A DNA stretch of 64,000 nucleotides from Candidatus Latescibacterota bacterium (GTDB lineage Bacteria > Latescibacterota > UBA2968 > GCA-2709665): positions 544,001 to 608,000 of the forward strand of contig CAXXXF010000006.1 in assembly GCA_963667175.2 (NCBI GenBank), in the 5' to 3' direction. Both the position numbers and the translations under genes were made by a program. The notes under the pieces are model-generated. The model saw nothing but the letters and a program-made list of their open reading frames with translations. It had not been told where the DNA came from and made no database searches. Each line of letters begins with the position of its first letter. The stretch's first letter is position 1. Shown in pieces: positions 31,148 to 60,454 of the stretch.

Positions 31148-31483
31148 ATGGACACAGAAATCCTCCGCCTGCTTATCTCCATCGTAACACCTATAGCGGC
31201 TATTGTTGGTATCGGATGGTTCGGTCTGGATAGAATGGAACAGAGAATCAAAGCCGATGCCCAACAGATGGAACAGAGAATAAGAGAGGATGCTCAAAAA
31301 GCTCACGATCAGATAGGCCTGAACATCGAAACATTGCGATCTGAGATACGATCTGATACAAGCGGGATACGATCTGAATTGAGCGACATGCGAAAAGAGA
31401 TTACGGACCTGACGGGCCGAGTAGGACGTATCGAGGGCATGCTCGAAGGTATGCGAGATGCCTCGAAATCCACCCCCGAGTAA
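31148..31483 (+). CDS. small TM + coiled-coil protein, family A copy 3 (two repeats)
   Basis: Paralog of 27424..27813. Confidence 0.8.
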   Translation: MDTEILRLLISIVTPIAAIVGIGWFGLDRMEQRIKADAQQMEQRIREDAQKAHDQIGLNIETLRSEIRSDTSGIRSELSDMRKEITDLTGRVGRIEGMLEGMRDASKSTPE

Positions 31484-31936
31484 ATTCCCACCGCTTATCC
31501 TCCCGCTTTTCATCCGCCGCAACCGCCTATTAACCTCAATTCGAAAAAAGACAACCGAAAAATCGGCCACAAAAGGCACAAAAGACACAAAGGGCATAGC
31601 TGCAAAACGGCGTGTAGAGGTTGTCGAAAGGCATGTTATCACGGTTCACCACCAGTGACCTGAAGGTTCCTGAAAATCCGACGTCAAATCGCCATTATTC
31701 ACCTGCGTTTATTCGAATTCACGTTCCCTGAGAACCACGAATCAAGGTTAAGCCACGCTTCAAATTCCCGCCTTGAGCTGTCCCCCCTTGCCGGTTTCAT
31801 CACCGGGGAATCGCCTGCAAACAGCGCTCCCCCGACCTCTTCCGGCGACCATACAATCCCCCGTTAAATTCGTTAAATAGTGGACGCATGACACCTGTTT
31901 TGTTTTATATTGAAGAAGTGCGAATGCGGCGCTCTG

Positions 31937-32061
31937 TTGCAAATTGCGACATCTTGACTATCTTTCCACCGCGTTGAAACCGAACGCGTGGCCTGCGCGA
32001 CGGCTACTTTTCCGATGCAGCATGACAATCCCGGCGAACGGGCCTCGGACGACGTTCGCGT
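31937..32061 (+). repeat. conserved promoter + structured leader, copy 2
   Basis: Repeat of 28891..29016. Confidence 0.7.
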
Positions 32062-32137
32062 GTGATTCCGCAATGACTTGCCGCTGTAACCACGTCATCG
32101 GCAATAACGCCGATGTACATTCCCCGGGAGGGAATGA

Positions 32138-33289: not shown

Positions 33290-33292
33290 GCA

Positions 33293-44152: not shown

Positions 44153-45658
44153 TCACGCGCTAACGCCGTACTTTCTCATCCAGTTCGTGAACGTCTGGTA
44201 GCTGGGAAGCCCCACGAGCCGGGCGGCTCGCGATTTGTTTCCTCCTGTCTCTTCCAGCGCCCGCGCAAGGTAGTGCCGCGCGACCGAGGCCAGCAGGGAT
44301 TGGAGGCTAAGGCCATCGCCGAGGGGGCGTTCAAGTATCTTGGCGTCGACCGAACTTACCGCGGGTAGAAGCGCTTCTTTCACGTCTCTAGCATCTATGG
44401 CGGGGCCGGGCGTCCAAAGCGCGGCGCGATGCAGGGTATTCAGCAATTCGCGGACATTACCCGGCCATGGGTGGGCCAGGAGGAAATTTCTTGCGCCTGG
44501 AGAGAGTCTCTTGTGTTCGAAACCCGGCTGATCGGCATTTTCGTCGTTGACCTGCTCGAGCAATCGGTCCACAAGAAGGTTCAGGTCACCCGTTCGATCC
44601 CGGAGAGCAGGCAGCTTCAAATCCGCCACGGCCAGGCGATAGAAGAGATCCTCCCGGAATCTTCCCGTTGCGACCTCTCCCGCCAGGCTCCTATTCGTCG
44701 CGGCGATGATCCTCACGTCGACCTCGCGATGGGCCGTCGCGCCGACGGGCAGAACCATTCCATCTTGCAGGATACGAAGAAACTTTACCTGTGAGGACGG
44801 GGCAAGTTCGCCGACCTCGTCAAGGAACAGGGTTCCCTTGTTGGCTGCCTCGAAATATCCGATCCTGGCTGCGTCCGCACCCGTGAAGGCACCCTTCTCG
44901 TGGCCAAATAGCTCGGATTCCGCCAATTCGGCCGGTATCGCCCCGCAGTTGACCGCCATGAAAGGGTGATCCCGGCGAAGACTCGCCCGATGGATCGCCC
45001 TCGCAAGCAGTTCCTTTCCCGTACCGGACTCGCCCTGTATGAGCACAGGCACAGACCGCGGCGCCACACGTCGGGCTCTCGCAATTACGCGCGCCATGGC
45101 GTCGCTCTGGTAGATGATATCGGCGAATTCCGGCACCTCGGGTGGAAGTCCGGCGGTCGCCTTCTCAAGACGCTCGTCGGGACCCCTGAGGAGGTTGGGG
45201 ATAAACTCGGCCGAGATATCAAACGGGACGGAGACCGTACGAACGCCATGTTTTGCTGACGACTCAATCAGCTCAGCGGGAAAACGCGTTTTTGCAAGGA
45301 GAATCCAGACGGCCGCCATGGCCGGGGTGCCGGGACTCAGGTGAAAGGTCAGGTCAGCATCATCACCGTGATCGCCAAGCGCCGCCGACACGACCCGAAC
45401 CGCGGCCTCGTAGATCTCGGCAAACTCAGTCGGTCCGGATAACGGCTCGCGGCGAACCGTTATCTCGGCCCGAGATCGCGATCGTAGCCACTCAAGAAAC
45501 GTCGCTACCTCGTCCTCAGGATAGTCGCTCAGGAGTACGGCAGCGTCGTACGAATGCGCGTCAAGCGCCTGGGCGACCGGCCCGATGCCCGCGTCCGCCT
45601 CATCACCTGGCGCGCGTAGATCCGCATGGCCGATCCAGCTGATCAGAATATTGTTCAT
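44153..45658 (-). CDS. RtcR-like sigma-54 enhancer-binding protein (CARF - AAA+ - Fis HTH)
   Basis: GESGTGKE, GAFTGA, LFLDEVGEL, FREDLFYRL, WPGNVREL, GNKSRAARLVGL. N-terminal 'ILISWIG..DL..FHLSPGTPAM' CARF-like. Confidence 0.9.
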   Translation of the reverse strand: MNNILISWIGHADLRAPGDEADAGIGPVAQALDAHSYDAAVLLSDYPEDEVATFLEWLRSRSRAEITVRREPLSGPTEFAEIYEAAVRVVSAALGDHGDDADLTFHLSPGTPAMAAVWILLAKTRFPAELIESSAKHGVRTVSVPFDISAEFIPNLLRGPDERLEKATAGLPPEVPEFADIIYQSDAMARVIARARRVAPRSVPVLIQGESGTGKELLARAIHRASLRRDHPFMAVNCGAIPAELAESELFGHEKGAFTGADAARIGYFEAANKGTLFLDEVGELAPSSQVKFLRILQDGMVLPVGATAHREVDVRIIAATNRSLAGEVATGRFREDLFYRLAVADLKLPALRDRTGDLNLLVDRLLEQVNDENADQPGFEHKRLSPGARNFLLAHPWPGNVRELLNTLHRAALWTPGPAIDARDVKEALLPAVSSVDAKILERPLGDGLSLQSLLASVARHYLARALEETGGNKSRAARLVGLPSYQTFTNWMRKYGVSA

Positions 45659-45929: not shown

Positions 45930-46739
45930 TTATTCTGGTTTCGTCCCGACAGCGCCGAGGACGTGATTGGGTAGATGTTCGATCTTCGTATCTACCTCTC
46001 CAGAAAGGAGATAATCGAGAGGCATATCACCGTGCCCAAACGCCCATAGAAAGAGTTCGGCTCCCAATGCCGAAGGTTGACAAATGATACCGTCGCCAGG
46101 GACAGCGCTTGCTAACTCCTGCAGAGATTTTTTGTCACCAAACTGCCATCGGTTTTCAATGAGATTATCCGAAAAAAGGCCATGCCATATGTGCGTCATA
46201 ATCTGTGGATTACTCCATTCGGCCCGCGTGAATCCCATTGACTCAGTGTAATTTTGGTATGGAAGGTACACCTCCATTTCAGCTCGATTTTCAGATAGAC
46301 CAAACTGCTTTCCCTTATCGGAGAAGAGGTGCGCAACCGTCGCATAAAGGAGATAGTGCGTTCTGACTTGATACGCCGAAAGTTCATCAACAATCTTGAC
46401 TAGCCTGGCACCGCGGTCATCACGGCCAACCTCGGTTCTTGAAGAAGCTAATACCCCACCAAAATACTCCAACGCAACGGGATCATCAGCGTATGAGCCT
46501 TCATTTACAATTCCCTTTAACACCTTTGGTGGTACCCGACCGGGAGATTCGATCCTATCGCCAAGTTTTCCGGCAGCATTTGAAAAGATGTAACGGACAT
46601 TCTCAATTCGGCGCTGTGCAAATGACTTCAGTTCGCCGCCCAAATAATCTGCTGTAGGTCCGAGAAGCTTATTGGTAAGATCCTTCCCCAGATAGGCAGC
46701 AATTACACTTACGCCGACTGTAGTAATTGGTTCCGACAT
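45930..46739 (-). CDS. Abi-alpha/DUF4393-like protein
   Basis: 'VPPKVLKGIVNEGSYADD...EYFGGVLASS...IVDELS' pattern. Lower GC, GGAG RBS. Confidence 0.55.
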   Translation of the reverse strand: MSEPITTVGVSVIAAYLGKDLTNKLLGPTADYLGGELKSFAQRRIENVRYIFSNAAGKLGDRIESPGRVPPKVLKGIVNEGSYADDPVALEYFGGVLASSRTEVGRDDRGARLVKIVDELSAYQVRTHYLLYATVAHLFSDKGKQFGLSENRAEMEVYLPYQNYTESMGFTRAEWSNPQIMTHIWHGLFSDNLIENRWQFGDKKSLQELASAVPGDGIICQPSALGAELFLWAFGHGDMPLDYLLSGEVDTKIEHLPNHVLGAVGTKPE

Positions 46740-46988
46740 GAGCGACTCCAGAATATTCACCGCAATGAAATTCTGCAAAGTACAACGCGGAAGATCGGTA
46801 GTAATCGTTAATTTGCCACGAATCGAGAATGGCGACTACAATCGTCTCGATACGATTTCGAACGTCCACAAAACCCGTCGGCGCAAGGTATTCCCTTTAC
46901 TATATCGATGGAGCGCCTCAAGTTCGCTTCGCGCACACTACTGTCATACGACGCTGTGTCATTGAAACATCCCAAGTTTGCGCGAAGA

Positions 46989-48590
46989 CTAAGGTCCTTT
47001 GTTGGGTTCTTCGTCTTCGACAGTTGCAGCATCGCTGGGCGCCGCTAGATCCCGCGCAAGGCTCTCGCATAGAGCGATGGCAGAGAGACAAAACGACGCT
47101 GCGAACGATGTTGACACGGTGATCCCTTGCCTATGCTGCCCAAAGTCACCAACAGATTGAATGTGGTCTGCGAGCAAATAGGTGGGTTTGGTCACGAAAC
47201 TTGCAACCGGGACGTTGTCCTCCGTGCCCGTGATGAGACGGAGAATGCTACACTGCTGCCCGCGTCGCTGAGGAAGAACGTCGAACTTTACGCCCACGAA
47301 CTTCCATTCTTGAGGAATAGACTCGCTGGATGGTAATTCGGCCTCCCAGATCAGATCCAGCGCATGGTTCGCGATGCTCCGAGCCCAAGTCGTGGATTGG
47401 GTCGGTTCAGGGTGCAGATCACGGATTGCCTTCTTCACGTAACCTAGAAAAATTGGATCCGACCCAGATACCTGATCAACACGGAGTTGGAGGAGGTCTC
47501 GAATGTTGTCATTAAATCGCTTTGCGTCACCAAATAGCCGCTTCAGATTCTCCACTTCGCTCGCTTGCTCTTGCGCATACTGACGCATAAAGCGACACGA
47601 CGATCTAAGCTTTCTCCCTGACGAAACAGCGAAGCCACGCTGCTTAAGGACCCGCATTCTCCCGTCCGGTATTTCGGATTGTGGAACGTCACGATTGGCG
47701 AGTTCTGCCAAGTCGGACCGAATCTCAACGTCGCAACCATCCCATAGAGCGTCCAGTAACCCATGTCTTTCTTCCAAAGTGGTCATTGCAACGTCGTCCA
47801 CGTGCGGTTTCGAAAGCGACGCCTCTTCGGGGGCTTCCAATAGTAGCCGCTCTGCAAGAGCAGCTGATAACGTCGGGACGCCCCCTGTCCAATTGGCGAA
47901 TTCCTTTCTGGCTGAGCCGTCAAGCTCGACGCCTCGCGATTCGAATGGCTTGAGGAAACCATCCCAGTCGTGTTCCTCGAAGCAACCGACATGCAGCGGC
48001 GTGTCGTAGAATATTTCCCAGAAATCCGACGTCCGGGACTCTTCGGTCTTGCAAAGCTCCCGGAGCCTGCTCCGGCTTCCCGTCACAACGCGGAGGCTGC
48101 TCATCTGGCAGAGCGTTCGCAGATTGTCCCATAGGTTTCTCGTTATGCGGCCTTCGGCGAGAAGGCGGTCGAACCCGTCGAGTACGGCTAGAATACGAAC
48201 TCCGCCGGTTTGCATTTCGCTAAAAACGAGATGTAGAAGATCGTGGAGGTCCTCGCCCTCCAAGTCCAAGTAATCTGCGAATTCAGGCTCTACCTTCTGC
48301 AGAACAATTTTGATGTGTTCCGTGAAACGTCGTCGGAACTCATCATCGGTCACCGGTGTGCCATGTCTGAGATCCCAATACAGCGACGTAGAGAAGTGCT
48401 CGCTTGGGCGCGCGAATTGCGTGGCAAGGTGATTCAGGAGGACGGACTTTCCAAACAAGGCAGGGCCGATGACGGACACGTGATCGGGGTTCGACTTGCT
48501 CAAGTGTCGGCATAACTCTTCAAATAGGCGTTCACGGCCGAGCATTGATGGGACATCAACGCCGAGGACTTGATAGGGAATGTCGCTCAT
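46989..48590 (-). CDS. STAND/AAA-like P-loop ATPase with atypical Walker motifs
   Basis: 'LGRE', GPALFGKS, AVLDGFD, TGGVP. ATGA overlap with the upstream gene. Confidence 0.75.
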   Translation of the reverse strand: MSDIPYQVLGVDVPSMLGRERLFEELCRHLSKSNPDHVSVIGPALFGKSVLLNHLATQFARPSEHFSTSLYWDLRHGTPVTDDEFRRRFTEHIKIVLQKVEPEFADYLDLEGEDLHDLLHLVFSEMQTGGVRILAVLDGFDRLLAEGRITRNLWDNLRTLCQMSSLRVVTGSRSRLRELCKTEESRTSDFWEIFYDTPLHVGCFEEHDWDGFLKPFESRGVELDGSARKEFANWTGGVPTLSAALAERLLLEAPEEASLSKPHVDDVAMTTLEERHGLLDALWDGCDVEIRSDLAELANRDVPQSEIPDGRMRVLKQRGFAVSSGRKLRSSCRFMRQYAQEQASEVENLKRLFGDAKRFNDNIRDLLQLRVDQVSGSDPIFLGYVKKAIRDLHPEPTQSTTWARSIANHALDLIWEAELPSSESIPQEWKFVGVKFDVLPQRRGQQCSILRLITGTEDNVPVASFVTKPTYLLADHIQSVGDFGQHRQGITVSTSFAASFCLSAIALCESLARDLAAPSDAATVEDEEPNKGP

Positions 48591-51500
48591 AGCTCATCCT
48601 CCGTCTTCTTGGAGCCGAAGCCCCGTCCAAGTCCAGCGCCGTAGCCATCCCCGTCTGAGAATCCGCCACCGTCGCCCTCGCCACGTCCGTAGCCATCGAC
48701 GATATCCGATTCTCCACGCTCCCGGACCGCCTGCCGGCGCTGATACTCGAAGTCGACGTTGTGTCCTATCCAGTTCGCCATCAAAGGAACCGCAAGCACG
48801 TAAGCAGAGCCTCGTGGCGACTCCCGGAGTTCAAGCAGTTCGAGTTCTCGCAGAAACTCGAGATCATCTCCCAGGCTCTCTTCACGCGGGATGGCAACGC
48901 CGCTCTCCTCGAGCTTCAGCTCAAGCAGGCTCAGCGTGATGGGATCCGGTCCATCCTCGAGTTTTCGACACAGCGCAAGAATAAAGCGCCTGCGCTCTGT
49001 GCGAGCGTAACCCCAGAGCGTGCGAAAGTGTTCGTTGTCCTTCGTCATATCTTCAGCACACGATTCTGCGGCGCCTACGGTCACCGTTCGTTCTTCGGTA
49101 TGGACGGCACGCTCGAATATCCGGTTGCACAGAGACTGGATCAAAAAGGGTTGTTGCGAACACAGGTCTACCACGCGGTCCCGCGCGTCGGGCACGTACG
49201 TGAGCCGCCCCTCCACCGGCCTTGTCACGAGCAGGCGGGCGTCCTCCAGCCGGATTTTGCTCACGGGGATCCGGTGACCGAACCCGAACAGCGCCGACCA
49301 GTATTCTTCCCGCAGTCTCTTGAGACGACGCGAGCCGGTCAGTATGGCTGAGAGATCCGGATACGCGTGCAGCATGTAGCGGATGTTCTCGGGTACCTGC
49401 GGACTTGTGATCCCCGAGTCGATGCCCTCCTGGAGTTTGTCGAACTCATCCAGCATCAGCAGAAGACGCCGCGGGCTGGCAGCCTCAAGAACCGCCTGTA
49501 TGTACAGCTCGAAGGCTTCGAATGGTCGCGGCCCGGCAAACGCGGTTGACAACGCCTTCGTGAACGCCACCTTGAAACGCTTGCTCGTGTCCGGGGGATC
49601 CATTTCCGGCAAACACACCCGGAGGCCCGCGTCGTCCATCGCCCACCCGACGTCGCGCGCCAGGAGTCTGAAGACCTCGTTGGTTTCCAGTCCGCGTTTG
49701 CTCTTGTGGCCCTGGCCGCCCTGGAGGGAGCAGTTCACGACGATCCAGCCCGGAAGCGCGTCGGGATCCTGAAGGTGTTTGAGAATCGACGTCTTTCCCG
49801 TCCGGCGGTTGCCTTCCAGAAGAATGACGTTCGCCCGGTCGCTTGTTGAGAATTGGCGCCGGATCCTATCGATGATATCCTGCCGGCCGTAGAACATCTC
49901 CTTTCGATCAATGGGGCTGCCCACGATGTACGGGCTTGCTCCGATATCGGGGACTTGGACGGCTTCGGAGGTGGAACGCACGTCTACCGCGAGCGGGAGT
50001 TCACCGGACACAGGCCGGCCGTCCATGCGTTCGGCTCGCCATCGGAGCATGAACGGGTAGAGACCGGTTGCGACGTCCGCCGGAATTCGCGCCGTAAAGC
50101 TGAACGGTCCATTCTCGGCAAGATAATCGACACGCCCCTCGCCAATCGACGGAAACGTCGACGCCCGGACGTTTCGCAGTGCAAGCGGCGAATGGTTCAT
50201 TAAACGGACCCGAACCTCGTTTTCCGCCCCCGCTACGACCGCGTCCGGTTCAATGCCCGGCGCCAATGTGACGTCATCCAATATTGCGTCCAACTCGGCC
50301 CGAACCAGCCGGGAGATCCTCCTGGTGAACGTTATCGCATGAGCGAATGTCTGCAGCAGGTTCTTTCTGACTGAAGGATCAGCGGAACTGCCCGAACTCC
50401 CCCACTCTCGTGTCGCATGTGCACCTGCCAAATGGGCATTTCCTATGCCTAAGATAACCGAATGGACTTTCTCAAGACGGTTCCAGGCTCCGTCTAGGAG
50501 CGCCATGCGCCCCGATCCGGGCGGCACGTGGTTCAGACCATGCAGTGACTTCAAGGCTTCCGCGAGATCCTTCAGCCATCTGTTAAATTGACTCACGTCG
50601 ACAATACACGAGCGAACGACCTGTTTTCGGAGCGACGAGGCGGCGTGAGCAATGCGTTCCAGGAGCTTGACCCGGTCCTCGGCCCGTACCGGTCTCCACA
50701 GCCTCCGTAGTTCGGGAGATCCATTCAGCCATGACCCAACCGGGTCTTTGCTGTTTGTGACCAGGATGCGTACGAGCGCGGCAAAGGGATCTTCTCTTTC
50801 GTCACCCATCTGCTTTAATAGTTGTTCCTGTATCGAAACCTGCGGCGCCGGTACGCGAAGGTTTTGTAGCGTTCGAGCAGGGAGATGCCGGATCGTTTCG
50901 CCTCGGGCGTGACCACGGATCCACTGTTGATATGCATCAGACGCAAGGACGCTCTTCAGATAAACCGGGGAGATTGATTTCCCGGGGCGTATCACGGTGA
51001 GACTCCTCGTCGCCACGGCGTCGACAATGCCGCTCTGCTGGGATACGACCGCCAACGTTCCGACGTTGCCGGACGTGGTGATGAGAACGTCGCCCGCGCG
51101 CAACCGGTGCTTTGACCGCACTCGCCTGGTACAGTTCTTCGTCAGGAAGAGAGACGGAGATTGTACTCCGTTGCGATTCACGTCCGCTGCGCGCACAAGG
51201 CCGGCGAATACCGATGGATCGTTCCGTCGCGAGGTGGTACCAGACTTGTCGTACGATACACCTGTAAAGATATCAGCCACCTCGTTGAGTGGGTGTACCG
51301 GGACCCCGGCGTCGCTCCCGAGAACCCGAAGGGAAATTGACAGGATTTTCTCATCGGTTCGCTTTGCAATGAGATCACCGCCCCTGTCGGCGAGTTCTTT
51401 GATGGGGGTCTCCCAGAGGTCCTCAATCGGGTGTTTCTGTTGGAGGTCGTCTGGTTCACCGGTCCGGAATTCCGCCGTGATCGCGCGCGCCGCCTCGACG

Positions 51501-52699
51501 GCCATGTCGCGGCTGAGCTCGTCCTCCGGTCGAACAGACGGCGAATCTTCGATCCGCATGAACCGAACGGCCTCCTTCGCTTTTTCGCGGCGGAAGAGTG
51601 CCAGGCTCATTTTAATCCCCGTGACTGGAAGGAAGGCCCCGTCCGGAAGCGACACCACGCCTTCCACACAGTAATCGGTGAGGAGTTCCTTGCGGACCTT
51701 CTCGTCGGGACCCGTCCGATAGAGAGCGCCATCAGGAAGCGCGACGACGGCGCGACCGCCCGGGCGAAGCGAAGCCATCGCGTGCTGGAGAAACAGCGTC
51801 TCGATGTGCGTTGATGGAACCGGGAAATGGGTTGCGCTCTGCGCCCGCGCGTGTCGGCCCCATGGCGGTACTGCCACGACGCAGTCGAATCCTTCCGAGG
51901 ACCGCTCTCCGGCCGGGGGCCGATCCAGGGCGTCGCCGAGTTCGAGACCGGGTTGATCCATGCCCGCCAGGACGACGCGCGCAAGCCCGATGACGTGCGC
52001 GTACGGACTGATTTCCACCCCGTACACGCTTTGTTGAAGCGACTCGGGCATCCGCGTTGCGTTTTCGAGAAGTCGGCCGGCCACCGTGGCGAGCAGCCCA
52101 CCGGCCCCGAAGCACGGATCGTAGACGCGCTCTCCCGGACGAGGATCCAGAAGTTCAGCCATCAGCTCAACCACGCGTTTGGGCGTGGTGTGGTCTCCCG
52201 GGATCTCGCCCGTTTCAGCGGCGTTTGCCACAAGGGCCCCAAGCGCGTTCCCTGCCGAATGCCTGCCGGTATCGGATTCCAAATCGAAAGGCCTGCCCCA
52301 CTCCAGAAGTGTCTCGATCACCTCAGGAGATTCCCGGACCAGGTTTTCCACGATGGGCGCAAGCAGCTTCAAGTACTTACCGGGACCTCGATCGGGCGCG
52401 TTACGCAACGCAGGCAGAACCCCCCCGCCAAGCGCGTCCACGAGTTCGCCGCCGCGAAGATCGCGCCAGGAAGACCAATGCAGACCGCGAGGTAGGGCAG
52501 ACGGACAGTCGTGACTCTTGAGAGCGTCCGCGGGTTCCTGTTCGGCATCCTTGCGCTCGGCCCAACGCAGCAGAAACAGGGCGGCCGCAAAGGACGCGAT
52601 GGCCGACTCGGGCTGACGGTCGCCAGCCTCCTGCCCGGCGATCTCATCGAGGCGGGTCCGGAGTTCGGACACGCGAGATGTGAGTTCAGATTGATTCAT
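48587..52699 (-). CDS. fusion: HsdM-like N6-MTase fold + HsdS-like TRD + Ig-like + STAND/AAA ATPase (1370 aa)
   Basis: HTTPKRVVELM, YDPCFGAGG, YGVEI, VPPW, LFLQH. TRD 'GDVLITTSGNVG..P...IQE'. ATPase 'FYGR..EGNRRTGKTS..LMLDEFD'. ATGA overlap at 52696-52699. Confidence 0.85.
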   Translation of the reverse strand: MNQSELTSRVSELRTRLDEIAGQEAGDRQPESAIASFAAALFLLRWAERKDAEQEPADALKSHDCPSALPRGLHWSSWRDLRGGELVDALGGGVLPALRNAPDRGPGKYLKLLAPIVENLVRESPEVIETLLEWGRPFDLESDTGRHSAGNALGALVANAAETGEIPGDHTTPKRVVELMAELLDPRPGERVYDPCFGAGGLLATVAGRLLENATRMPESLQQSVYGVEISPYAHVIGLARVVLAGMDQPGLELGDALDRPPAGERSSEGFDCVVAVPPWGRHARAQSATHFPVPSTHIETLFLQHAMASLRPGGRAVVALPDGALYRTGPDEKVRKELLTDYCVEGVVSLPDGAFLPVTGIKMSLALFRREKAKEAVRFMRIEDSPSVRPEDELSRDMAVEAARAITAEFRTGEPDDLQQKHPIEDLWETPIKELADRGGDLIAKRTDEKILSISLRVLGSDAGVPVHPLNEVADIFTGVSYDKSGTTSRRNDPSVFAGLVRAADVNRNGVQSPSLFLTKNCTRRVRSKHRLRAGDVLITTSGNVGTLAVVSQQSGIVDAVATRSLTVIRPGKSISPVYLKSVLASDAYQQWIRGHARGETIRHLPARTLQNLRVPAPQVSIQEQLLKQMGDEREDPFAALVRILVTNSKDPVGSWLNGSPELRRLWRPVRAEDRVKLLERIAHAASSLRKQVVRSCIVDVSQFNRWLKDLAEALKSLHGLNHVPPGSGRMALLDGAWNRLEKVHSVILGIGNAHLAGAHATREWGSSGSSADPSVRKNLLQTFAHAITFTRRISRLVRAELDAILDDVTLAPGIEPDAVVAGAENEVRVRLMNHSPLALRNVRASTFPSIGEGRVDYLAENGPFSFTARIPADVATGLYPFMLRWRAERMDGRPVSGELPLAVDVRSTSEAVQVPDIGASPYIVGSPIDRKEMFYGRQDIIDRIRRQFSTSDRANVILLEGNRRTGKTSILKHLQDPDALPGWIVVNCSLQGGQGHKSKRGLETNEVFRLLARDVGWAMDDAGLRVCLPEMDPPDTSKRFKVAFTKALSTAFAGPRPFEAFELYIQAVLEAASPRRLLLMLDEFDKLQEGIDSGITSPQVPENIRYMLHAYPDLSAILTGSRRLKRLREEYWSALFGFGHRIPVSKIRLEDARLLVTRPVEGRLTYVPDARDRVVDLCSQQPFLIQSLCNRIFERAVHTEERTVTVGAAESCAEDMTKDNEHFRTLWGYARTERRRFILALCRKLEDGPDPITLSLLELKLEESGVAIPREESLGDDLEFLRELELLELRESPRGSAYVLAVPLMANWIGHNVDFEYQRRQAVRERGESDIVDGYGRGEGDGGGFSDGDGYGAGLGRGFGSKKTEDEL

Positions 52700-54300
52700 C
52701 TGTCGACGCCCTCCCTTGCGGTCATTCGGACAACGATCGAGGCCGCGCCAGCTTCCTCGGCAACCCGGCGGGCGACCTGGATCTCTTCCGGAGATCGGAC
52801 CGCCACCACGAGCTTCCCGTCCGGTTCCTTGAATACGGGAGGCTCGTACGGGGCTGGCTTCGTCTTCTTGCCGGCCGCTGTCCGCGAGGCTGCCTTCGCC
52901 CTGGAATCTCTTGCACCGGTCCGCTCGGGCATCTCCGGCCCGCCGCCAGCAGTCCGCATGATTTCCTTCGCCTTCGGGTGCAGATCCGGTGCTCGAACGA
53001 GCCTTCGGCACTCAAGCTCGTGAGCGGGTTGCGGCAGTCCATTGATACGCGGGAGATCCGGGGCTGGCGCTTTCAGTACGTGCGCGGACGCGGCAGTTAC
53101 GGATCCAAGATCTACCGTGAGCCGGGGCTTGACCTCGAGGTCGATCAGATTTCCTCCGTGCCAGACGCGCACGTCTCCGGCCACCTCTCCCAACGCAGGC
53201 GCCGGAAGGAGTTCCCACGCCGCCTGACTCGACCATCGTTCGAGGCGGATCCGAAGCTCGTCCGCCCGCTCGCCTTCAAGCCGCAAGCCCAATTCGAAGC
53301 CGCCGTCGAGCCCATGCTTCTCCAGATTCGCCGACATGACCAGTCCCCTGCCCGAGTCGGACCACAACGCCTTGGCGTGCAGCCACTTGAAGCCGAGCAC
53401 CCGGGCGCCCGCCTCCGCGAGCGCGGCGAGGGCGGGCATGGCGCGGAGACGGGTGCGCGCCAGCACCGTGAGCGAAACGCCCTCGCGGGCACGCGCACAG
53501 AGACGCTCGACCACCGGATGGCCGGCGTCCCATCCGTAGCTCGAAACGATGAGTTCCCCGGAGGCGCCGTCGATGAGATCGACGGCCTCCTCACGCAGTT
53601 GAGTGACTGAAGACGTGGTTGCCAGGACATGCGGGGACGGCGCCGGATGATCGACGCGGCCGAGGGGCTTCACCGCCCGAAAATTTCCAAGTTCCACCAT
53701 TTCGTGCTCTGCGCCTTCCCATATTGCCCATCGAACGAGCTCTGCAGCTTCTTTCACTTCCTTCGGGGTCAGCTCGACGGCCAACTCCTCGTTCCGCTCC
53801 AGCGCTTCGCGAGTGAGGTTCGCCGTCAGCAATAGCCCCGCAGGGCGCTCGTCGGGGTCGACCAGTACCAGCTTGGCGTGGAAGTGCGGCGCCGAACGGA
53901 TGAGCGCCCAACCGCCAAGGCGACTCAGCACGTCGTTGTGTTCCGCGAGCACACGCCGTTCAAACTCCCCGTCCCCGGGTTCGTCACCAAGACGGGCTTC
54001 CGAGGCGAGCATGACGTACACCCGCACGCCCCTCCCGGCGGCTTCGAGGATCGCGGCTTCGACGTCCCGGTCGGCCAGCAGGAAGCTGGAGACGACGACT
54101 TTCTTTCTTGCGGAGGCCAGGAGTTTGGCGATTCGATCCTTCAGCTCCCCGCCCTTTCCCGATATATGGACTTCCCTGCCCGTTTCCGGCTGGCGGATTG
54201 TCTCCCTCTGGCGGGAACTCCACGTGGGTGGCAGTCGATAGTTGCGCTGGTTAATAATAGATGTGACCTGCTTTGTCCAGTTCTTCATGGTGATCTCCAT
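52696..54300 (-). CDS. phospholipase D-family nuclease with two HKD motifs
   Basis: HAKLVLVD..TANL..NEEL and HAKALWSD..SANL..FEL. TAATG overlap at 54300. Confidence 0.85.
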   Translation of the reverse strand: MEITMKNWTKQVTSIINQRNYRLPPTWSSRQRETIRQPETGREVHISGKGGELKDRIAKLLASARKKVVVSSFLLADRDVEAAILEAAGRGVRVYVMLASEARLGDEPGDGEFERRVLAEHNDVLSRLGGWALIRSAPHFHAKLVLVDPDERPAGLLLTANLTREALERNEELAVELTPKEVKEAAELVRWAIWEGAEHEMVELGNFRAVKPLGRVDHPAPSPHVLATTSSVTQLREEAVDLIDGASGELIVSSYGWDAGHPVVERLCARAREGVSLTVLARTRLRAMPALAALAEAGARVLGFKWLHAKALWSDSGRGLVMSANLEKHGLDGGFELGLRLEGERADELRIRLERWSSQAAWELLPAPALGEVAGDVRVWHGGNLIDLEVKPRLTVDLGSVTAASAHVLKAPAPDLPRINGLPQPAHELECRRLVRAPDLHPKAKEIMRTAGGGPEMPERTGARDSRAKAASRTAAGKKTKPAPYEPPVFKEPDGKLVVAVRSPEEIQVARRVAEEAGAASIVVRMTAREGVDR

Positions 54301-55412
54301 TACAGTCTCCAATCTTCGGCGGCGGCGAGACGCCAGAACAAAGGATCGGGACGTTCTGGCGTCCCGTTGCAGACCTCGTCGAAAAGTTCCGTTCGAGTTG
54401 GGAGTTCTATCTCGTACTGTTCGAAGGGGTCAGCCGCCTCACCGCGCCATGCTGAATAGCGCTCAGAGGTCGCATAGTCCCGGATCCGTGCGCGCAGGCG
54501 CCACTTCGCCCACGACTGTGCCTCGGCCTCAGACGGGGCGGTGATCGGTACGTCCGGAACGTTAAGCGGCTCGAACTTTCCGTAGAAGCCCAGGTACGGT
54601 GACTCGAATTCCAGGACGCGGGACATGGCCTCCCGCTCGGGGTCGTTGGTGTCGTCGAAGCTCACGCACAGCACCTGCCGTTTTTCGTCCCACTGCTCCA
54701 ATAGACCCCCGTTTTCGAGCAACGTGCGCCATACCCGGTCGGGCGACGTGGATGGCGCCTCCAGTTCGGTCGCGACCTTCTTCCCTTCCAGGATTCCGGT
54801 GAGCTGCAATCGCCCGTCGCCGAAGTTCCAGCGGAGACGAAGGAATCCATTGGCGTCAACTGCCTCGGCTTTGTCCTCAAGGTCATCAACGCGAATCACG
54901 GCGCCGCGTCCGGCGGCCGGCTTGATGGGCGTCCCCTCGACGTTTCGTATCCAAGTCGGTAGTGCGTCGTGTCGGCGCTCTTCCGTGCGCTGCCGCTTGT
55001 TGCGGAGCTCGTCGTGCGCGGTGGGCTCCTTCCACGGTTCGATTCGCAAGATGGGCGACGGCAGCAGAGGGTCGACACTCGCCCAGATCGTCCAGGTTCC
55101 GCACTCGGGAACGAGCACCTTTTCAGTGTCGATGGCCGTCTCCCCGGCTTCGGTGAGTTCGAAAGCGCGACCGCGCTTCTCGAGAAGCTTGTAGGCGACT
55201 CCAATATCCAGGAGCCGCTCAGCGACGACGCGCCGCGACCGGGACTCGAAGAGCAGATGCTCGGCCACGTCGCGCGCGCCCGTTCCGCCGTTCTCGCGAA
55301 TCCGCAGGAGGACGGGCATGAGTTCGGGCCGTTTCTCAGCTTTGGCGACCTGCCCGACGACGCGCCAGCACCTGACTTCCACGGGTCGTTCCAGAATGAT
55401 GTTCCTGTTCAT
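54300..55412 (-). CDS. hypothetical protein with N-terminal winged helix
   Basis: 'ARDVAEHL..VAERLL...LLEK...FELTEAGE'. ATGA overlap with the helicase stop. Confidence 0.75.
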   Translation of the reverse strand: MNRNIILERPVEVRCWRVVGQVAKAEKRPELMPVLLRIRENGGTGARDVAEHLLFESRSRRVVAERLLDIGVAYKLLEKRGRAFELTEAGETAIDTEKVLVPECGTWTIWASVDPLLPSPILRIEPWKEPTAHDELRNKRQRTEERRHDALPTWIRNVEGTPIKPAAGRGAVIRVDDLEDKAEAVDANGFLRLRWNFGDGRLQLTGILEGKKVATELEAPSTSPDRVWRTLLENGGLLEQWDEKRQVLCVSFDDTNDPEREAMSRVLEFESPYLGFYGKFEPLNVPDVPITAPSEAEAQSWAKWRLRARIRDYATSERYSAWRGEAADPFEQYEIELPTRTELFDEVCNGTPERPDPLFWRLAAAEDWRL

Positions 55413-58045
55413 TGTTGCCTCCGGTTGATGTCCTTCCCCCACCGTTTGCTCTCAGCCAATGCCTTCAGCAAGGTACCCCTTGCCCGACGCATCGCCTGCC
55501 GGTCGCCAATGACGACGCGCTGATAGCGCGCTCTGGTCAGGGCGACGTTCAGGCGGTTCGGGCTCTCCAGGAAGCTCGTCGGGTGGGGCCGGGCGAAACT
55601 GATCAGCACGACGTCGGCCTCGTGCCCCTGGAAGCGGTCAACGGTGCACAGCTCGATGCGGAGGTAGGGCCGTTCCTTCTGACCCCGTGTAAAGTGGCGC
55701 ATTGCGTGGCGCTGCCCGGTCCATTTATGGAGATAGCCCCGCACCTTCCGTTCCTGTCCCCGGTAGAAGGTCAGGACGGCCGCCTCCCAGGTACGGTCGT
55801 CATTCAGCGGGTTCGCACGCGCCCACGCATCGAAGTGGCGGAGTTCTTTTACAACCGATCGAGCCTCCCTTTGGTTGCAGTTGAGGCGCCGGTCGAAGGC
55901 GCCACGAACGTCGCGCCAGACGGCATGGTAGGCGTAGCGGGGGTAGCTCCACGCGCGTTCGTCCTTCATCGATTCCGGGGTTTGGAGCGCCTTGCCGCCG
56001 TAGACGTGTTTATGGGATAACGCCGCAATCTCGGGATGCATGCGGTGCTGCGTGCTCAGGAGCACGTGACGCGGATCGAGCACGAAATCCGGCAGACCGT
56101 CCGACAGCGCGCTTCCGGTGCGCTGGTTCCCGTTGCGCTCGAACCCACGATGAAGCGATTCGAGAACGGACGGAAGGGCGACGCGGCGTACGCGATCGAT
56201 CTCCAGCCAGACCTCTTCCGGATCTGCGCCGGTCTCAGCGTTGGGGAGTAACTCTTTCACTTCCTGACGCAGGCGTTCCGCGGTGGTGGTCCGGTTGTCA
56301 CTCGAATCGTCCGAATCCTCTGCGAAACGCTGCTCGTACAACCTCGCGAGGCGCCAACCGACTTCGGACGCCCACTCCGGCGCCTCTTCGCCGTCTTGTC
56401 CGGCAAGGCGAAGCCACGCATCCGCGCGACGATGCGCGACGTGCAGAGTGTTCTCCGGCCCGCGCACCATCGCGAGGTCAAGCGGCAGTTCGTCCACCCT
56501 CCGCTCCAGCGCGGTAGCTGTACCGATAGCGACGTCCGCGGTCGAGAGCCCGTGGTCATCGAGGTCCGCGTCGGCAAGCGTTACGTCCCGAGCGGCGCAC
56601 TGCTCGCGGTACCCCTGGCGGGTACGTTCGTCCTCTGCGACGACGGCGGCGGTGCGCCGTTTATGGCGGCTGGGACGCCCCGCGTTGAAGGCGTCAATGC
56701 AGGCGTCCCGGATCCCGGGGTCGCGAAGACACGTCTCAATGTTCACCGCCATCGCCTCGTCATCGACGTACGGGGAGAGTTGCTTCGGGTCGCCGACGAT
56801 GATCCAGCGCTTCGCCAGCAACGCGGGGACCAGGAATTCCTGGAATGGCGTCTTGGAGGCTTCGTCGACGATGAGCACGTCGAAGGTGGTGCTGGCGTGG
56901 CCGCCCGACTTGCCCCGGTGCTGTTTAATGTCCGGATGCTGGAGGATCCCGATTGTGGTCCCGCACACGAGGTTGGCGGCGTCCAGAACCATGCGCTCGA
57001 TAACCGAGGGGCCCGGGCGCAAGGCTTCAAGAAAGGCTTCCTGCGACGGCGTGAGAGACCTTCGCCCCTGAAGCTCCCGGAGCAGGCGCTCCCTCTCGGT
57101 TCGAACGAAACGGTCGAACTGCCATGGGCGCGCCTTCTCGGAGACGTTCCGCCGGTCGCCGATGCGGACCGGGATCACCAGGTCGCGGTGTGGGTTGGAC
57201 TCGTCCATCAGGCGCTCCAGCACGTTGTCGACCGCGACATGCGTCGACGCCGAGAGAAGCACCCGCTTCCCGCGCTTCGCAAGCTGGAGCACCAGTTCGC
57301 CGATCGCCGTCGTCTTTCCCGAACCGGGCGGCCCTTCGAGAAACGCGAAATCCGGCGTTCCGAGGGCCTGCTCAACGAATTCGCGTTGCTCGCCGGTTCC
57401 GGGACGACTCTGGTCCGTCAGCACCATCCAGTCCGGGTCATCAATGCACTCCGCATCGACAATCGGCCATAAAGCGCTGTCGCGATCTTCGAAGAGCCGC
57501 AGCAAAGGGCGGTGAAAGGACGAAGGGGTGTTCTGAAGCGCCTGTAGAGCATCGATCTGGCACTTGATTTGCCACGTGTTGGGCCGGAGCAGGAGCTCGG
57601 TCAGGTCCGGAACTCGCTCGAGCAACAGTTGGTTGGTATTGGGGTCCCGGTCGATTACCGCAATCTTGTGCTGCGGACCGAAGCCCAGTCGGTCGTTACG
57701 ACGGGCATCCGGCCCTTCGGTTTCGGCGGAGGGCTCGGCCTCGTAGACCTCCTTCACGTTTTCGTCCAGGAAGGTCCGAAATGTGGCCTCCGGCTCATCG
57801 CGACGGCCCGGCGGCTCGGTCAGCTCGATCCAAGTTCCATCGGTCTCTGCCCGCCCGGCGCCGTTGCCGCCGTTGGCCGGCGGTTCGCCGGGGCGCCACG
57901 CGAGCCGTTTCACGGCAGCGTCGCTGTTCAGGTATTCCCGAGTCCGCCTCAGGAATTCGTAGAATATCCGGAGCCCATAGAAGGTGTTCTTCATCAGGAC
58001 GTCCGGGCGGTGAACCCCGAGGTTCCAGTAGTGCAGTAGCGCCAT
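55409..58045 (-). CDS. SF1B UPF1/DNA2/NAM7-like helicase (AAA_11/AAA_12)
   Basis: GPPGSGKTT, STHVAVDN, VDEASK, GDPKQLSP, QHRMHP, TFYRGQ, TVDRFQGHE, NRLNVALTRAR. Confidence 0.92.
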   Translation of the reverse strand: MALLHYWNLGVHRPDVLMKNTFYGLRIFYEFLRRTREYLNSDAAVKRLAWRPGEPPANGGNGAGRAETDGTWIELTEPPGRRDEPEATFRTFLDENVKEVYEAEPSAETEGPDARRNDRLGFGPQHKIAVIDRDPNTNQLLLERVPDLTELLLRPNTWQIKCQIDALQALQNTPSSFHRPLLRLFEDRDSALWPIVDAECIDDPDWMVLTDQSRPGTGEQREFVEQALGTPDFAFLEGPPGSGKTTAIGELVLQLAKRGKRVLLSASTHVAVDNVLERLMDESNPHRDLVIPVRIGDRRNVSEKARPWQFDRFVRTERERLLRELQGRRSLTPSQEAFLEALRPGPSVIERMVLDAANLVCGTTIGILQHPDIKQHRGKSGGHASTTFDVLIVDEASKTPFQEFLVPALLAKRWIIVGDPKQLSPYVDDEAMAVNIETCLRDPGIRDACIDAFNAGRPSRHKRRTAAVVAEDERTRQGYREQCAARDVTLADADLDDHGLSTADVAIGTATALERRVDELPLDLAMVRGPENTLHVAHRRADAWLRLAGQDGEEAPEWASEVGWRLARLYEQRFAEDSDDSSDNRTTTAERLRQEVKELLPNAETGADPEEVWLEIDRVRRVALPSVLESLHRGFERNGNQRTGSALSDGLPDFVLDPRHVLLSTQHRMHPEIAALSHKHVYGGKALQTPESMKDERAWSYPRYAYHAVWRDVRGAFDRRLNCNQREARSVVKELRHFDAWARANPLNDDRTWEAAVLTFYRGQERKVRGYLHKWTGQRHAMRHFTRGQKERPYLRIELCTVDRFQGHEADVVLISFARPHPTSFLESPNRLNVALTRARYQRVVIGDRQAMRRARGTLLKALAESKRWGKDINRRQQ

Positions 58046-58092: not shown

Positions 58093-58419
58093 TCAGCCCA
58101 TCGGCCGCCGGTTACGCCGACGACCTTGCGGGCGCAGCCCTCGGAAGTCTCGATTCCGGTACGTGGTCAGGACGTCTCCTTCTGAACTGCATACGACGTG
58201 AATTCCCTCGAAGTCAGCCAATTCGATGCCTTTACGCAGGAACCTCGTGACTTCCTTGCGGCCGATGACGTAGATTTTCGCGCCGCGCACGTAGACCACA
58301 CGACCATATTTTATCACCGTCGAAAGGGCAGTTTCGGAAATCCTCCGGGCCATCATCCGCATACGGGCATGGGTCGTGATGACATGGCTCCGGCGCTTGT
58401 CTGCACAATCGTAGCTCAT
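58093..58419 (-). CDS. DUF4258-like small basic protein
   Basis: 'TTHARMRMMARRI...VIKYG...VVCS..G.VLTTYRN'. AAAGGAG RBS. Confidence 0.75.
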   Translation of the reverse strand: MSYDCADKRRSHVITTHARMRMMARRISETALSTVIKYGRVVYVRGAKIYVIGRKEVTRFLRKGIELADFEGIHVVCSSEGDVLTTYRNRDFRGLRPQGRRRNRRPMG

Positions 58420-58472: not shown

Positions 58473-58487
58473 GCCACTTCCGTGCCA
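58473..58487 (-). promoter_or_regulatory. secondary sigma-54 promoter candidate
   Basis: TGGCAC-GGAAG-TGGC, GG-N10-GC spacing kept. Confidence 0.55.
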
Positions 58488-58583: not shown

Positions 58584-58598
58584 GCAAACCGCGTGCCA
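58584..58598 (-). promoter_or_regulatory. sigma-54 (-24/-12) promoter
   Basis: TGGCAC-GCGGT-TTGC, exact match to TGGCAC-N5-TTGC, pointing into the operon. Confidence 0.85.
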
Positions 58599-59608: not shown

Positions 59609-60454
59609 CTACGTGACAAGATCAAACGGCAAGTCTGCAATATCTCGGAGACGATTGCCGATAATCATCGTATCCAAAGAATCCTGGACGGCTTCGTTTC
59701 GACTCTCTTTGGTGACCTTCACAAGTTCATTAAGGCAGAAGTGGTAGACACAATCGATATCGCCGGTTCCCAATGCGAGAGACGCGATTCGGGTTGGCAT
59801 TGGTTCGGCCGTCACCACGGCGATATGGGGGGTGTGCCCTTTACGGTTACGTATCAGGTTCAAGCCTTCCGTTCGGGCATTCTGCGACCGATCACTTCGA
59901 AGAGTCAATTTGCACGAAATGCTCGCGTGCAGTATTGGAGACGCTTCTTCCTGATTTGTCCGACGTAGCGGCGTCAAGTACGGGATGCCACCCTCGTGTA
60001 CGATTACCCAATGCTTGTTTATCGCCTCGTCTGCAACAGGTGTGCGCGCAACGATGACCTCGGGCTTGACGACATAATCACCAAGGGCCGTCTGAGCCAC
60101 CTTATTGGCTTGGATCAGTTCATTCAGGGTAGCCAAATGTCGGTATTGCACGAATTCCGATATATCGCCGTGCACAGAATAAATCCAATCCGCTGGACGA
60201 AGATGTTCGAGGACTTTCATGGTTGATTTAATGAATTCCCGTACTGCCGCTTCAAACTTGCTCCCGGCGGTTTGACCGCTTATTCTGGTGCTCCCAAGCG
60301 AATAGCCAAATTCCTCAATGATCCCGCGCGCCAACGAACAACTGAGATTGCTGCTGGTGTCGGCAATGCTCGGGGTTCGATCTCTTTTCAAGAATATCGC
60401 TCCAGAACAGACTTGCCGTTGAAATTGCTCGCGCAGTTTTGCGATTTCAGCCAT
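59609..60454 (-). CDS. NgoMIV-family type II restriction endonuclease
   Basis: GQTAGSKFE, LHASISCKLTLRSDRSQNARTEGLNLIRNRKG.TPHI..VTAEP.P.RIASLALGTGDIDCVYH. Confidence 0.9.
   Translation of the reverse strand: MAEIAKLREQFQRQVCSGAIFLKRDRTPSIADTSSNLSCSLARGIIEEFGYSLGSTRISGQTAGSKFEAAVREFIKSTMKVLEHLRPADWIYSVHGDISEFVQYRHLATLNELIQANKVAQTALGDYVVKPEVIVARTPVADEAINKHWVIVHEGGIPYLTPLRRTNQEEASPILHASISCKLTLRSDRSQNARTEGLNLIRNRKGHTPHIAVVTAEPMPTRIASLALGTGDIDCVYHFCLNELVKVTKESRNEAVQDSLDTMIIGNRLRDIADLPFDLVT

Follow-up and report, generated by a model that had tools for sequence, protein, structure and literature searches.

An HsdM-like domain with a degenerate motif IV, fused to a STAND-like ATPase and paired with a second ATPase: a possible sensor derived from restriction-modification

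Introduction

The core of Type I restriction-modification (R-M) enzymes is an assembly of two HsdM methylase subunits and one HsdS specificity subunit (HsdM2-HsdS1; 5ybb, EcoKI 2y7c), and Type I R-M loci can house a guard: PrrC of EcoprrI, like RloC, is a nucleoside triphosphatase (NTPase)-nuclease encoded inside such a locus and thought to watch the state of the enzyme. A methyltransferase (MTase) fold can also be kept as a nucleic-acid scaffold after degeneration of motif IV, as in the METTL14-type pseudo-methyltransferases. Here we describe a locus on a 64,000-nucleotide stretch of DNA from Candidatus Latescibacterota bacterium (GenBank assembly GCA_963667175.2, contig CAXXXF010000006.1, positions 544,001 to 608,000 of the forward strand), which we call the window and in whose coordinates all positions are given. 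Its minus strand encodes F0, a 1370-amino-acid (aa) fusion of an HsdM-like domain, one target recognition domain (TRD), a helical spacer, a beta-sandwich and an AAA+ ATPase with a winged helix (48587..52699), followed by F1, a second ATPase. The reading we favour, with somewhat less than even confidence, is that F0-F1 is an R-M-derived sensor or guard, an 'integrated decoy' and bacterial counterpart of the nucleotide-binding leucine-rich repeat receptors (NLRs), for which we infer a trigger and an effector below.

In Ronin, made up of HsdS-HsdM and the 61-aa RonA, HsdMS is described as a decoy that senses Ocr, ArdA and Aop1, and methyl transfer as dispensable, the motif IV mutant F287G still working (bioRxiv 10.1101/2023.04.06.535777); as presented there, the system has a canonical NPPF HsdM, a separate HsdS, a small membrane-peptide effector and no ATPase. 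In the bacteriophage exclusion (BREX) system, PglX (BrxX), which carries an N6_Mtase domain and a TRD, works with the large P-loop ATPase BrxC; both S-adenosylmethionine (SAM) and the motif IV Tyr are reported to be needed for DNA binding, defence and methylation (bioRxiv 10.1101/2024.04.12.589305), which shows that a methylase pocket can serve recognition, and Ocr is reported to bind PglX (PMC7261183). MADS comprises, among others, the methylase MAD2, the S subunit MAD5 and the ATPase MAD8, and in Avs proteins (Avs3, 8dgc) and plant NLRs with integrated decoys a winged-helix switch ATPase is fused to a recognition module.

With the HsdM2-HsdS1 core, F0 shares the HsdM fold, the motif order X, I, II, III, IV, V, VI, VIII, an HsdS-type TRD followed by long helices, and frequent linkage to HsdR. 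It departs from Type I enzymes in that a single chain joins M to half of S, another residue takes the place of the motif IV Asn, the TRD is not hypervariable but conserved, about 560 residues (beta-sandwich and AAA+ ATPase) are added, and a second ATPase subunit is obligate. Nor does F0 correspond to a Type I M or S subunit, having one fused TRD in place of a separate two-TRD HsdS and no HsdR at its locus in the window; it has the N6_Mtase fold and motif I but lacks (N/D/S)PP(Y/F/W) with a hydrogen-bonding first residue and, as this is the defining catalytic motif, we do not class it with the Type I methylases. F0-F1 resembles PrrC as an NTPase encoded within a Type I R-M operon; PrrC differs in its ABC-type NTPase, its defined anticodon nuclease domain and its lack of an M or S domain, and the C-terminal domain of F1, in which R370, E418 and H486 are conserved, has no detectable relation to any nuclease. 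METTL14-type proteins differ from F0 in being eukaryotic, RNA-directed and heterodimeric with an active paralog.

Ronin, as described, comes close to our reading of F0 in using R-M-derived M and S parts as bait and in being usually linked to another restriction system; in F0, the motif is naturally degenerate, and M and S are fused to a switch ATPase. No RonA-like gene was seen among the named genes of the window operon, in which no RonA query or systematic search for small ORFs was made. PglX, which pairs like F0 with an ATPase, keeps NPPY, unlike F0, and methylates in vivo; brxA, brxB, pglZ and brxL were absent from Pfam and PADLOC scans of the window. The MADS gene set is also different, with weak matches of F0 to mad2 and mad5 and of F1 to mad8, and F0 scores of 76 bits against the NCBIfam equivalog cut-off of 720 for MAD2 and 32 against 400 for MAD5. 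Compared with Avs proteins and NLRs, F0-F1 has no TPR, LRR or WD40 repeats, two paralogous ATPase subunits and no fused effector domain, and its best structural matches are ORC/Cdc6 and archaeal PF01637 ATPases. F0-F1 is not MADS and not BREX and, going by the named genes of the operon, does not appear to be Ronin. PADLOC and NCBIfam hold no model for the F0 fusion or for F1, and we found no description of the fusion or of the pair in the literature, in which RtcR-like proteins beside R-M genes were noted in 2014 (PMC4012209), a report whose Supplementary File 4 may already show such neighbours.

Results and discussion

Domain architecture of F0

The F0 open reading frame (ORF) spans 48587-53011, and we prefer the ATG at 52699 as its start, which has a ribosome-binding site (AAGGGAGGG) and forms an ATGA overlap with the stop of the upstream gene; a database protein (P0002) is identical to the resulting 1370-aa product over 100% of its length. 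A first-pass annotation, made from the DNA letters, had described the ORF as an HsdM-like domain with an intact SAM motif and an altered motif IV, fused to one TRD, an Ig-like segment and a STAND-like ATPase, and our analysis recovered each of these parts.

Residues 1-455 (51335..52699) form a complete HsdM-like part, including the C-terminal HsdM helix, as judged from matches to Pfam N6_Mtase (residues 156-412, E 5e-40) and PADLOC MTase_I (residues 13-450, E 2e-56), and from a profile of 49 homologs that aligned to the solved HsdM 5ybb_A with E 1e-76 over profile positions 6-457. The rows of this alignment were chosen to span identities among the best 120 (42-100% identity, 917-1432 aa) of at least 256 homologs, including rows that fail the motif IV search pattern. 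Motif I, the SAM loop, reads DPCFGAGG (residues 194-201; 52097..52120), and its D194, P195, F197 and G198 are invariant in the 49 homologs.

The single TRD, at about residues 466-620 (50840..51304), was matched by the PADLOC Specificity_I and mad5 models (about residues 460-634) and, in a profile search of the Protein Data Bank (PDB), by EcoKI HsdS (2y7c_A) and Esub1 over query positions 466-632, in agreement with Foldseek matches of the modelled TRD to Esub1 and the PacII S subunit. An AlphaFold model of F0 residues 430-1370, built from a 53-row alignment with a mean predicted local distance difference test score (pLDDT) of 86.5, places the TRD strands at 468-617, four long helices at 621-808, an eight-stranded beta-sandwich at 812-908, the AAA+ core, lid and winged helix at about 940-1315, and a disordered tail at the end. 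The helical spacer (about residues 621-810; 50270..50839), with helices of up to 37 residues, sits where HsdS has its conserved coiled-coil regions, and the beta-sandwich (49976..50266) corresponds to the predicted Ig-like segment; neither has a Pfam match. The Gly/Asp-rich tail (residues 1335-1370; 48590..48697) is predicted to be disordered, with pLDDT below 50, and the family consensus stops before it.

The ATPase part (residues 916-1334; 48698..49954) carries a Walker A motif, GNRRTGKT, at residue 963 (49790-49813) and a Walker B motif, LLMLDE, at residue 1080 (49439-49462), both of them intact, in agreement with the first-pass annotation; G963, N964, R965, R966, G968, K969, S971, D1084 and D1087 are invariant in the 49 homologs. 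Pfam AAA_16 matched residues 936-1091 with 32.6 bits, exactly at its cut-off. The nearest folds found by Foldseek were ORC/Cdc6, with CED-4, Apaf-1 and the wheat resistosome also listed (for the ATPases of F0 and F1 together, matches to ORC/Cdc6, PAB2304, CED-4, Apaf-1 and Avs3 had E 1e-7 to 3e-10), and Atlas language-model look-alikes of residues 640-1340 fell in clusters with nSTAND1, ATPase_2, AAA_22 and AAA_16. The arrangement of signal transduction ATPases with numerous domains (STAND), in which a helical lid and a winged helix come after a P-loop NTPase with Walker A and B, is present in F0. No TPR, WD40 or LRR sensor was found at the C-terminus of either protein, F0 ending in its tail after the winged helix and F1 in a repeat-free helical domain. 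Going by the predicted fold, 'STAND-like' is a fair label for this ATPase, though one without a repeat sensor after it. Pfam and PADLOC scans showed no nuclease domain within F0, as the first-pass annotation had also noted; it left unmentioned the phospholipase D (PLD)-family nuclease-like gene directly upstream.

Motif IV across the family

On the minus strand, positions 51883-51854 read TGC GTC GTG GCA GTA CCG CCA TGG GGC CGA, encoding CVVAVPPWGR, in agreement with the earlier reading of VAVPPW with a GTA codon at 51860-51871. Motif IV is therefore VPPW (residues 277-280; 51860..51871), with V277 encoded by GTA at 51869-51871; as GTA differs from both Asn codons at three positions, a single base error does not explain the Val. 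In the profile alignment, the V/A column falls on the motif IV Asn of 5ybb_A ('vvtnpPfgg').

The change is not private to the window. Among the best 120 homologs, 83 have V directly before PPW, 22 have A and two have C, T and N are seen once each, and 11 lack xPPW[GS], so that V or A stands in 105 and the notion that homologs might all keep NPP(F/W) does not hold. In some members the motif has decayed further: seven of the homologs that lack PPW, included in the 49-row alignment, have VSPW (2), VPPC (1) or T-V-V-P-S (4), and an F0 on an Acinetobacter ursingii plasmid has HPPV, which argues that methyl transfer is not the selected function. D194, P195, F197, G198, E229 and P279 are invariant in the 49 homologs and D272 is at least 90% conserved. 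By alignment, on which all statements about the SAM and base pockets rest (the structure models cover F0 residues 430-1370 and F1), F0 keeps the SAM-pocket residues D194, E229 and D272 and the base-stacking Pro-Pro-Trp; the Asn/Asp that would activate the amino group of adenine is gone.

A search for related loci gave 78 species-level genome loci (1.52 Mb), from which 62 full-length F0 sequences, together with that of the window, made a 63-row set; 16 loci were excluded because the ORF call was cut or outside 1250-1460 aa. Motif IV starts with A in 21 of these rows, with N in 18 and with V in 17; D, H and S each stand there in 2 rows and T in one. W280 is present in 58 of the 63. The cultured Planctopirus hydrillae (L040) carries one of the NPPW members. 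Loss of the Asn as a family-wide trait is ruled out by the N in 18 and D in 2 rows, which lie mostly in deeper clades. In a quick LG+G4 tree of the ATPase part, computed with long-branch warnings, one clade of 14 rows is all NPPW, the window F0 falls within a 41-row clade (support 97) with 35 V/A, 4 H/S and 2 N, and two V members (L068 and L071) are sister to an N/D group; at least five changes of motif IV state are needed on this tree, four of them forced by starred branches. On these alignments and this tree, the catalytic residue is given up repeatedly and its loss is stable across a large clade, with one third of the family keeping it.

These observations bear on the possibility that F0 is a still-active methyltransferase with an odd motif IV, acting on DNA or on another substrate, in which the backbone carbonyl of the first Pro and the Trp are enough for catalysis. 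The invariant or nearly invariant SAM-pocket residues, the PPW kept in most members and the N or D in one third of the family favour such activity. The Asn side-chain carbonyl, however, is described as one of two hydrogen-bond acceptors for the target amino group, in a source that also describes the role of the aromatic residue (PMC3874165); V, A, C, T, H and S all occur at the first position of motif IV, whose remaining residues have decayed in some members, and F0 keeps 36 of the 114 columns that are invariant in the linked HsdM proteins described below. We regard continued methylation as highly improbable. The earlier proposal that the protein may not methylate finds support in the window's own clade, where the change is prevalent and goes further in places; it does not extend to the whole family, given the 20 of 63 members with N or D.

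F1, a paralogous partner ATPase

F1 (46989..48590, minus strand) is a 533-aa AAA+/NACHT-like ATPase with a winged helix and a family-private helical C-terminal domain, and its start overlaps the F0 stop. In each of the 70 loci with 1.7 kb or more of sequence downstream, F0 is followed by an F1 homolog. The two ATPases are paralogous (hhalign probability 98.9%, E 3e-17, 284 columns), F1 having a NACHT-like Walker B, D-G-F-D, and Pfam scores that are all under the cut-offs (AAA_16 28.8, nSTAND1 21.6 and NACHT 18.0 bits). Its model (pLDDT 92) shows an AAA+ core, a lid and winged helix, and a 190-residue helical C-terminal domain, with PAB2304, ORC2/Cdc6, Avs3 and CED-4 as the nearest folds in Foldseek.

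With 0.40 as the best score among three controls, the predicted complex of F0 residues 916-1334 with F1 residues 1-522 reached 0.81 (0.80-0.82 over three runs). Of 80 solved complexes, 58 attained this mark, as did 2 of 110 mismatched pairs; the score may in part reflect the many solved AAA+ dimers and our own alignments. The runs share at least 94% of their contacts, with partner pLDDT of at least 84. This prediction supports binding between F0 and F1. The two proteins are translationally coupled and form a conserved two-protein module with F0 as the large subunit. The first-pass picture of a single fusion protein acting as a sensor stands as regards its domain make-up; as regards its self-sufficiency, it gives way to an obligate paralogous partner, an operon with an RtcR-like activator and a sigma-54 promoter, and an adjacent nuclease and helicase.

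A profile search of 1.84 billion representatives with the F1 C-terminal domain found 444 clusters at 50% identity, the best 150 of which are all F1-sized or shorter except two. These two metagenomic proteins, P0230 (754 aa) and P0257 (1205 aa), join an N6_Mtase domain straight to the F1 C-terminal domain without an ATPase, P0257 adding an FHA domain and a TRD; a second search with P0257 gave no relative of comparable length. Such fusions are a weak hint that the C-terminal domain works on the M/S part, and could also be deletion products. The conserved polar residues of the domain are C332, R351, R370, D378, E418, Q446 and H486. It gave only a chance DUF285 match in Pfam at E up to 10, nothing below E 0.17 in a PDB profile search and no usable match in the ESM Atlas; with phmmer, full F1 matched PDB entries only at E 0.65 or worse. 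A search for F1 relatives in viral contigs with two patterns gave 30 pattern matches, none of them confirmed.

Related loci and the Type I R-M cassette

The related loci revealed a recurrent cassette in the order RtcR-like CARF/sigma-54 activator, HsdR, HsdM, HsdS, F0, F1. The HsdR is of the EcoEI type (PADLOC REase_I, 2e-94), the HsdM matches MTase_I (7e-127) and the HsdS has two TRDs; in about half of the loci F0-F1 closes an operon with a canonical HsdR-HsdM(NPPY)-HsdS. The link to Type I R-M that the first-pass annotation had proposed is thereby borne out by gene context. Among the 53 loci with at least 7 kb of upstream sequence, we counted an RtcR-like gene in 29, HsdR in 31 and HsdM in 28; the activator occurs together with HsdM in 17 and without it in 12, and 13 loci have none of the three. 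These tallies are approximate, 'upstream' being measured from the first F0-like match, possibly the HsdM gene, and they are shaped by identity thresholds and by ORFs from a simple caller of our own.

The cassette HsdM keeps NPPY in 27 of 30 cases, and the mean pairwise identity over 22 loci is 70% for HsdM and 26% for HsdS, as against 42% for the MTase-like domain, 38% for the TRD and 55% for the ATPase of F0. As the cassette has a conserved methylase of its own, F0 is not the methylase of the linked R-M system. The cassette HsdM accompanies 18 of the 20 members with N or D in motif IV versus 16 of the 38 with V or A. The identity of the F0 TRD, near that of its own MTase-like domain and unlike the gap between HsdS and HsdM, shows that this TRD evolves with F0 and is not swapped as a variable specificity module. 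We also considered whether it copies the specificity of the linked HsdS and rejected this, as the HsdS of the same locus was ranked first by the F0 TRD in 1 of 29 loci, the other ranks being spread from 2 to 28. This lack of likeness within a locus speaks, at the level of sequence, against F0 reading the sites of the linked R-M system.

A fixed place behind HsdRMS in the same sigma-54 operon could mean that F0-F1 regulates the linked Type I system or the activator, by sequestering HsdR (restriction alleviation), by aiding assembly, or by feedback on the CARF domain as RtcA and RtcB exert on RtcR. RtcAB are reported to bind the CARF domain of RtcR and to be needed for activation (PMC9650030), and the 2014 report of RtcR-like proteins beside R-M genes (PMC4012209) fits as well. 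Yet F0-F1 persists without R-M genes, as in the 12 loci with an activator and no HsdM and in the 13 with none of the three genes; HsdR remnants between RtcR and F0 in two loci (L025, L036) suggest that R-M was lost and F0-F1 kept; and the pair in the window does not adjoin Type I genes. A regulatory role thus seems to us decidedly unlikely.

Two loci, L026 and a large mobilizable clinical plasmid of Acinetobacter ursingii (L092; NZ_MH220285.1, 194747-202512), have the order HsdR, F0, F1 with neither HsdM nor HsdS. The plasmid F0, with its HPPV and with motif X lost, is annotated 'N-6 DNA methylase' in the record; an IS5 transposase gene follows F1, and the 1.5 kb ahead of HsdR hold no listed gene. 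Such loci would suit F0 as the targeting subunit of a methylation-independent Type I-like restriction enzyme, replacing HsdM2S1 beside HsdR or beside a helicase and a PLD protein. It would read a fixed DNA feature with its TRD and flipping pocket, for example a modified adenine tolerated by the V/A, and the F0-F1 ATPases would license cleavage, self-DNA being spared by absence of the feature or by keeping the operon off. The whole HsdM contained in F0, up to its C-terminal helix, the conserved stacking PPW and SAM pocket, the conserved rather than swapped TRD and the sigma-54 promoter of the operon all agree with such a role. Against it, HsdR and F0-F1 without HsdMS occur in these two loci only, about 28 loci hold a complete HsdRMS and need no second M/S, and 13 of the 53 have no motor-nuclease within reach; we consider it unlikely. 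Under the sensor reading, to which we return below, L026 and the plasmid are likewise counted in favour, as loci in which a motor-nuclease accompanies a dead F0 and no methylase is present.

Several further arrangements were seen around F0-F1. One locus (L048) has two tandem F0-F1 pairs behind a single RtcR-like gene, the first F1 being called at 384 aa only. An AAA_14-DUF4143 ATPase gene (PADLOC candidate PDC-S01, E 4e-64) lies downstream of F1 on the opposite strand in L014, L015, L020, L036, L038, L055 and others, and such neighbours were found in several loci with F0-F1 only. In five loci of the order RtcR, F0, F1 (L021, L022, L028, L039, L049), F1 has an RNA ligase gene nearby, downstream and on the opposite strand (Pfam RNA_ligase, E 3e-21 in L021), which is suggestive given the link of RtcR to RNA repair.

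A tentative model for F0-F1

In the sensor or guard reading, F0 would no longer methylate DNA and, probably as a dimer imitating the M2S1 core, would offer a Type I DNA-binding cleft as its sensor, decoy sensing without catalysis having a precedent in HsdMS of Ronin as described. Candidate triggers are DNA-mimic anti-restriction proteins, loss of SAM or a fixed feature of foreign DNA, the first two, as threats to Type I enzymes, seeming likelier than the third, and the kept Trp and SAM pocket lean toward a part for SAM or a flipped base in triggering. Ligand binding would be passed to the F0-F1 ATPase pair and cause a switch of state or oligomerisation, and the switched pair would then license the adjacent motor-nuclease or arrest the cell. 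In the common cassette this motor-nuclease would be HsdR, and in the window a superfamily 1 (SF1) helicase with a PLD nuclease. The CARF activator would hold the operon low until a stress or infection signal. A patchy, accessory distribution is also counted for the sensor reading: apart from the window's own genome, F1 was found in none of 14 genomes from the genus and in 3 of 167 from the phylum. A more specific form of the proposal, which we find possible but doubtful when taken with all its parts, is that F0-F1 is a widespread unnamed integrated-decoy receptor, with a dead HsdM and half an HsdS as bait (for Ocr, ArdA or SAM destruction) and a helper ATPase, induced through CARF and sigma-54 alongside a Type I or other motor-nuclease. 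With an activator akin to the RNA-damage sensor RtcR, such an operon would join the signalling of RNA damage to inducible restriction and decoy sensing.

Several points weigh against these proposals, besides the provisos attached above to the locus tallies and the complex score. Judging from the 20 of 63 members with N or D and the clade of 14 that is all NPPW, the ancestor may have been an active methylase and some members may still be, so that the sensor reading may hold for the window's clade only. The strong conservation of the Trp and the SAM pocket exceeds what a pure protein bait would need, and a nucleic-acid or SAM reader would fit at least as well. No recognised toxin or nuclease domain is present in F0 or F1, and the 13 of 53 loci with no RtcR-like gene, HsdR or HsdM within reach leave the effector step unexplained there. 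Finally, the helicase and PLD genes of the window belong to a module of its own, which may simply be a neighbouring system.

Were the sensor reading true, a restriction methylase would have been retired from catalysis and reused as a sensor inside a switch ATPase, following the same logic as plant integrated-decoy NLRs and E. coli Ronin but in another protein family, far larger and with a much broader distribution: it counts at least 256 proteins and the 444 F1 clusters, and spans 78 species-level genomes of over ten phyla. It would give a function to the RtcR-like CARF activators noted beside R-M in 2014 and never explained, and would mean that control by an inducible sigma-54 promoter can extend to a complete Type I system. 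Annotations everywhere call members of the family 'N-6 DNA methylase', and methylome studies seeking its motif would probably find none.

The window operon and its surroundings

All genes of the window operon lie on the minus strand, in the order DUF4258 ORF, SF1 helicase, 380-aa protein, PLD protein, F0, F1, 282-aa protein and RtcR-like gene. The last of these (44153..45658) encodes a CARF and sigma-54 activator, a bacterial enhancer-binding protein with a helix-turn-helix (Pfam Sigma54_activat, E 2e-68; PADLOC RtcR_PspF2 CARF_AAA_HTH, E 8e-198), homologs of which, 55-74% identical, lie upstream of F0 in related loci. Upstream of the operon, in an intergenic region, a pattern search found an exact sigma-54 promoter consensus (TGGCACGCGGTTTGC; 58584..58598, minus strand), and 111 nt downstream of it, before the DUF4258 ORF, a near-consensus element with one mismatch (TGGCACGGAAGTGGC; 58473-58487, minus strand). 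As the window holds four matches with up to one mismatch against 4.1 expected by chance, the argument for a promoter rests on position and on the related loci. There, the plus strand (1.52 Mb in all) carries the strict TGGCAC-N5-TTGC 30 times; in 14 loci the element follows the stop codon of the RtcR-like gene without a gap, and it lies within -30 to +60 nt of 22 of 41 RtcR-like 3' ends. The window's genome has rpoN, and no remnant of an RtcR-like gene was seen upstream of the window's promoter.

In the window, the place that HsdRMS takes in the cassette is held by a trio of genes, and no HsdR, HsdM or HsdS adjoins F0; the other Type I loci of the host genome are on five other contigs, and none belongs to the cassette subfamily. 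The first of the trio (55409..58045) encodes an 878-aa MkoA-like SF1 helicase with Walker A and DEA motifs (Pfam AAA_11 and AAA_12; PADLOC MkoA, E 1e-82, covering profile positions 532-1081 of 1112). The second (54300..55442) encodes a 380-aa protein, always found between the helicase and PLD genes, with no match in Pfam, PADLOC or NCBIfam; like F1, it is absent from the 14 other genomes of the genus and present in 3 of the 167 of the phylum. By comparison with Mokosh type I, which pairs the MkoA helicase with the MkoB PLD nuclease, it is an additional gene between the two. The third (52696..54312), whose stop overlaps the F0 start, encodes a 538-aa PLD-family nuclease-like protein with two intact HxK(x)4D motifs (Pfam PLDc_2), which matched PADLOC MkoB with E 8e-13, the DrmC models scoring better. 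The trio is conserved in L066 and L098-L100, standing without F0-F1 in the last three, which are other genomes of the phylum, and joining F0-F1 only in the window and in L066. It was accordingly rejected as an obligate part of the F0-F1 system. L066 (Minicystis rosea) has a full HsdRMS cassette upstream of F0 and the trio downstream of F1; its F0 is called as two ORFs, of 968 and 377 aa, perhaps through a frameshift or a sequencing error.

The 108-aa DUF4258 ORF (58093..58419; Pfam E 2e-7) is the first gene behind the promoter and was not seen in related cassettes, and the 282-aa ORF between F1 and the activator gene (45930..46778) has no Pfam match and was not seen in related loci. A Type II R-M system, also on the minus strand, lies immediately upstream of the operon; it consists of an NgoMIV-like endonuclease (59612-60454; Pfam E 1e-93) and an N6_N4 methylase (60463-61896), and the region as a whole is an accessory defence island. 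Farther away and unrelated to F0-F1, positions 28000-34000 have a G+C fraction of about 0.53 compared with 0.60-0.65 elsewhere in the window, and a 969-aa subtilase with several Ig-like domains is encoded at 33293-36202 on the plus strand.

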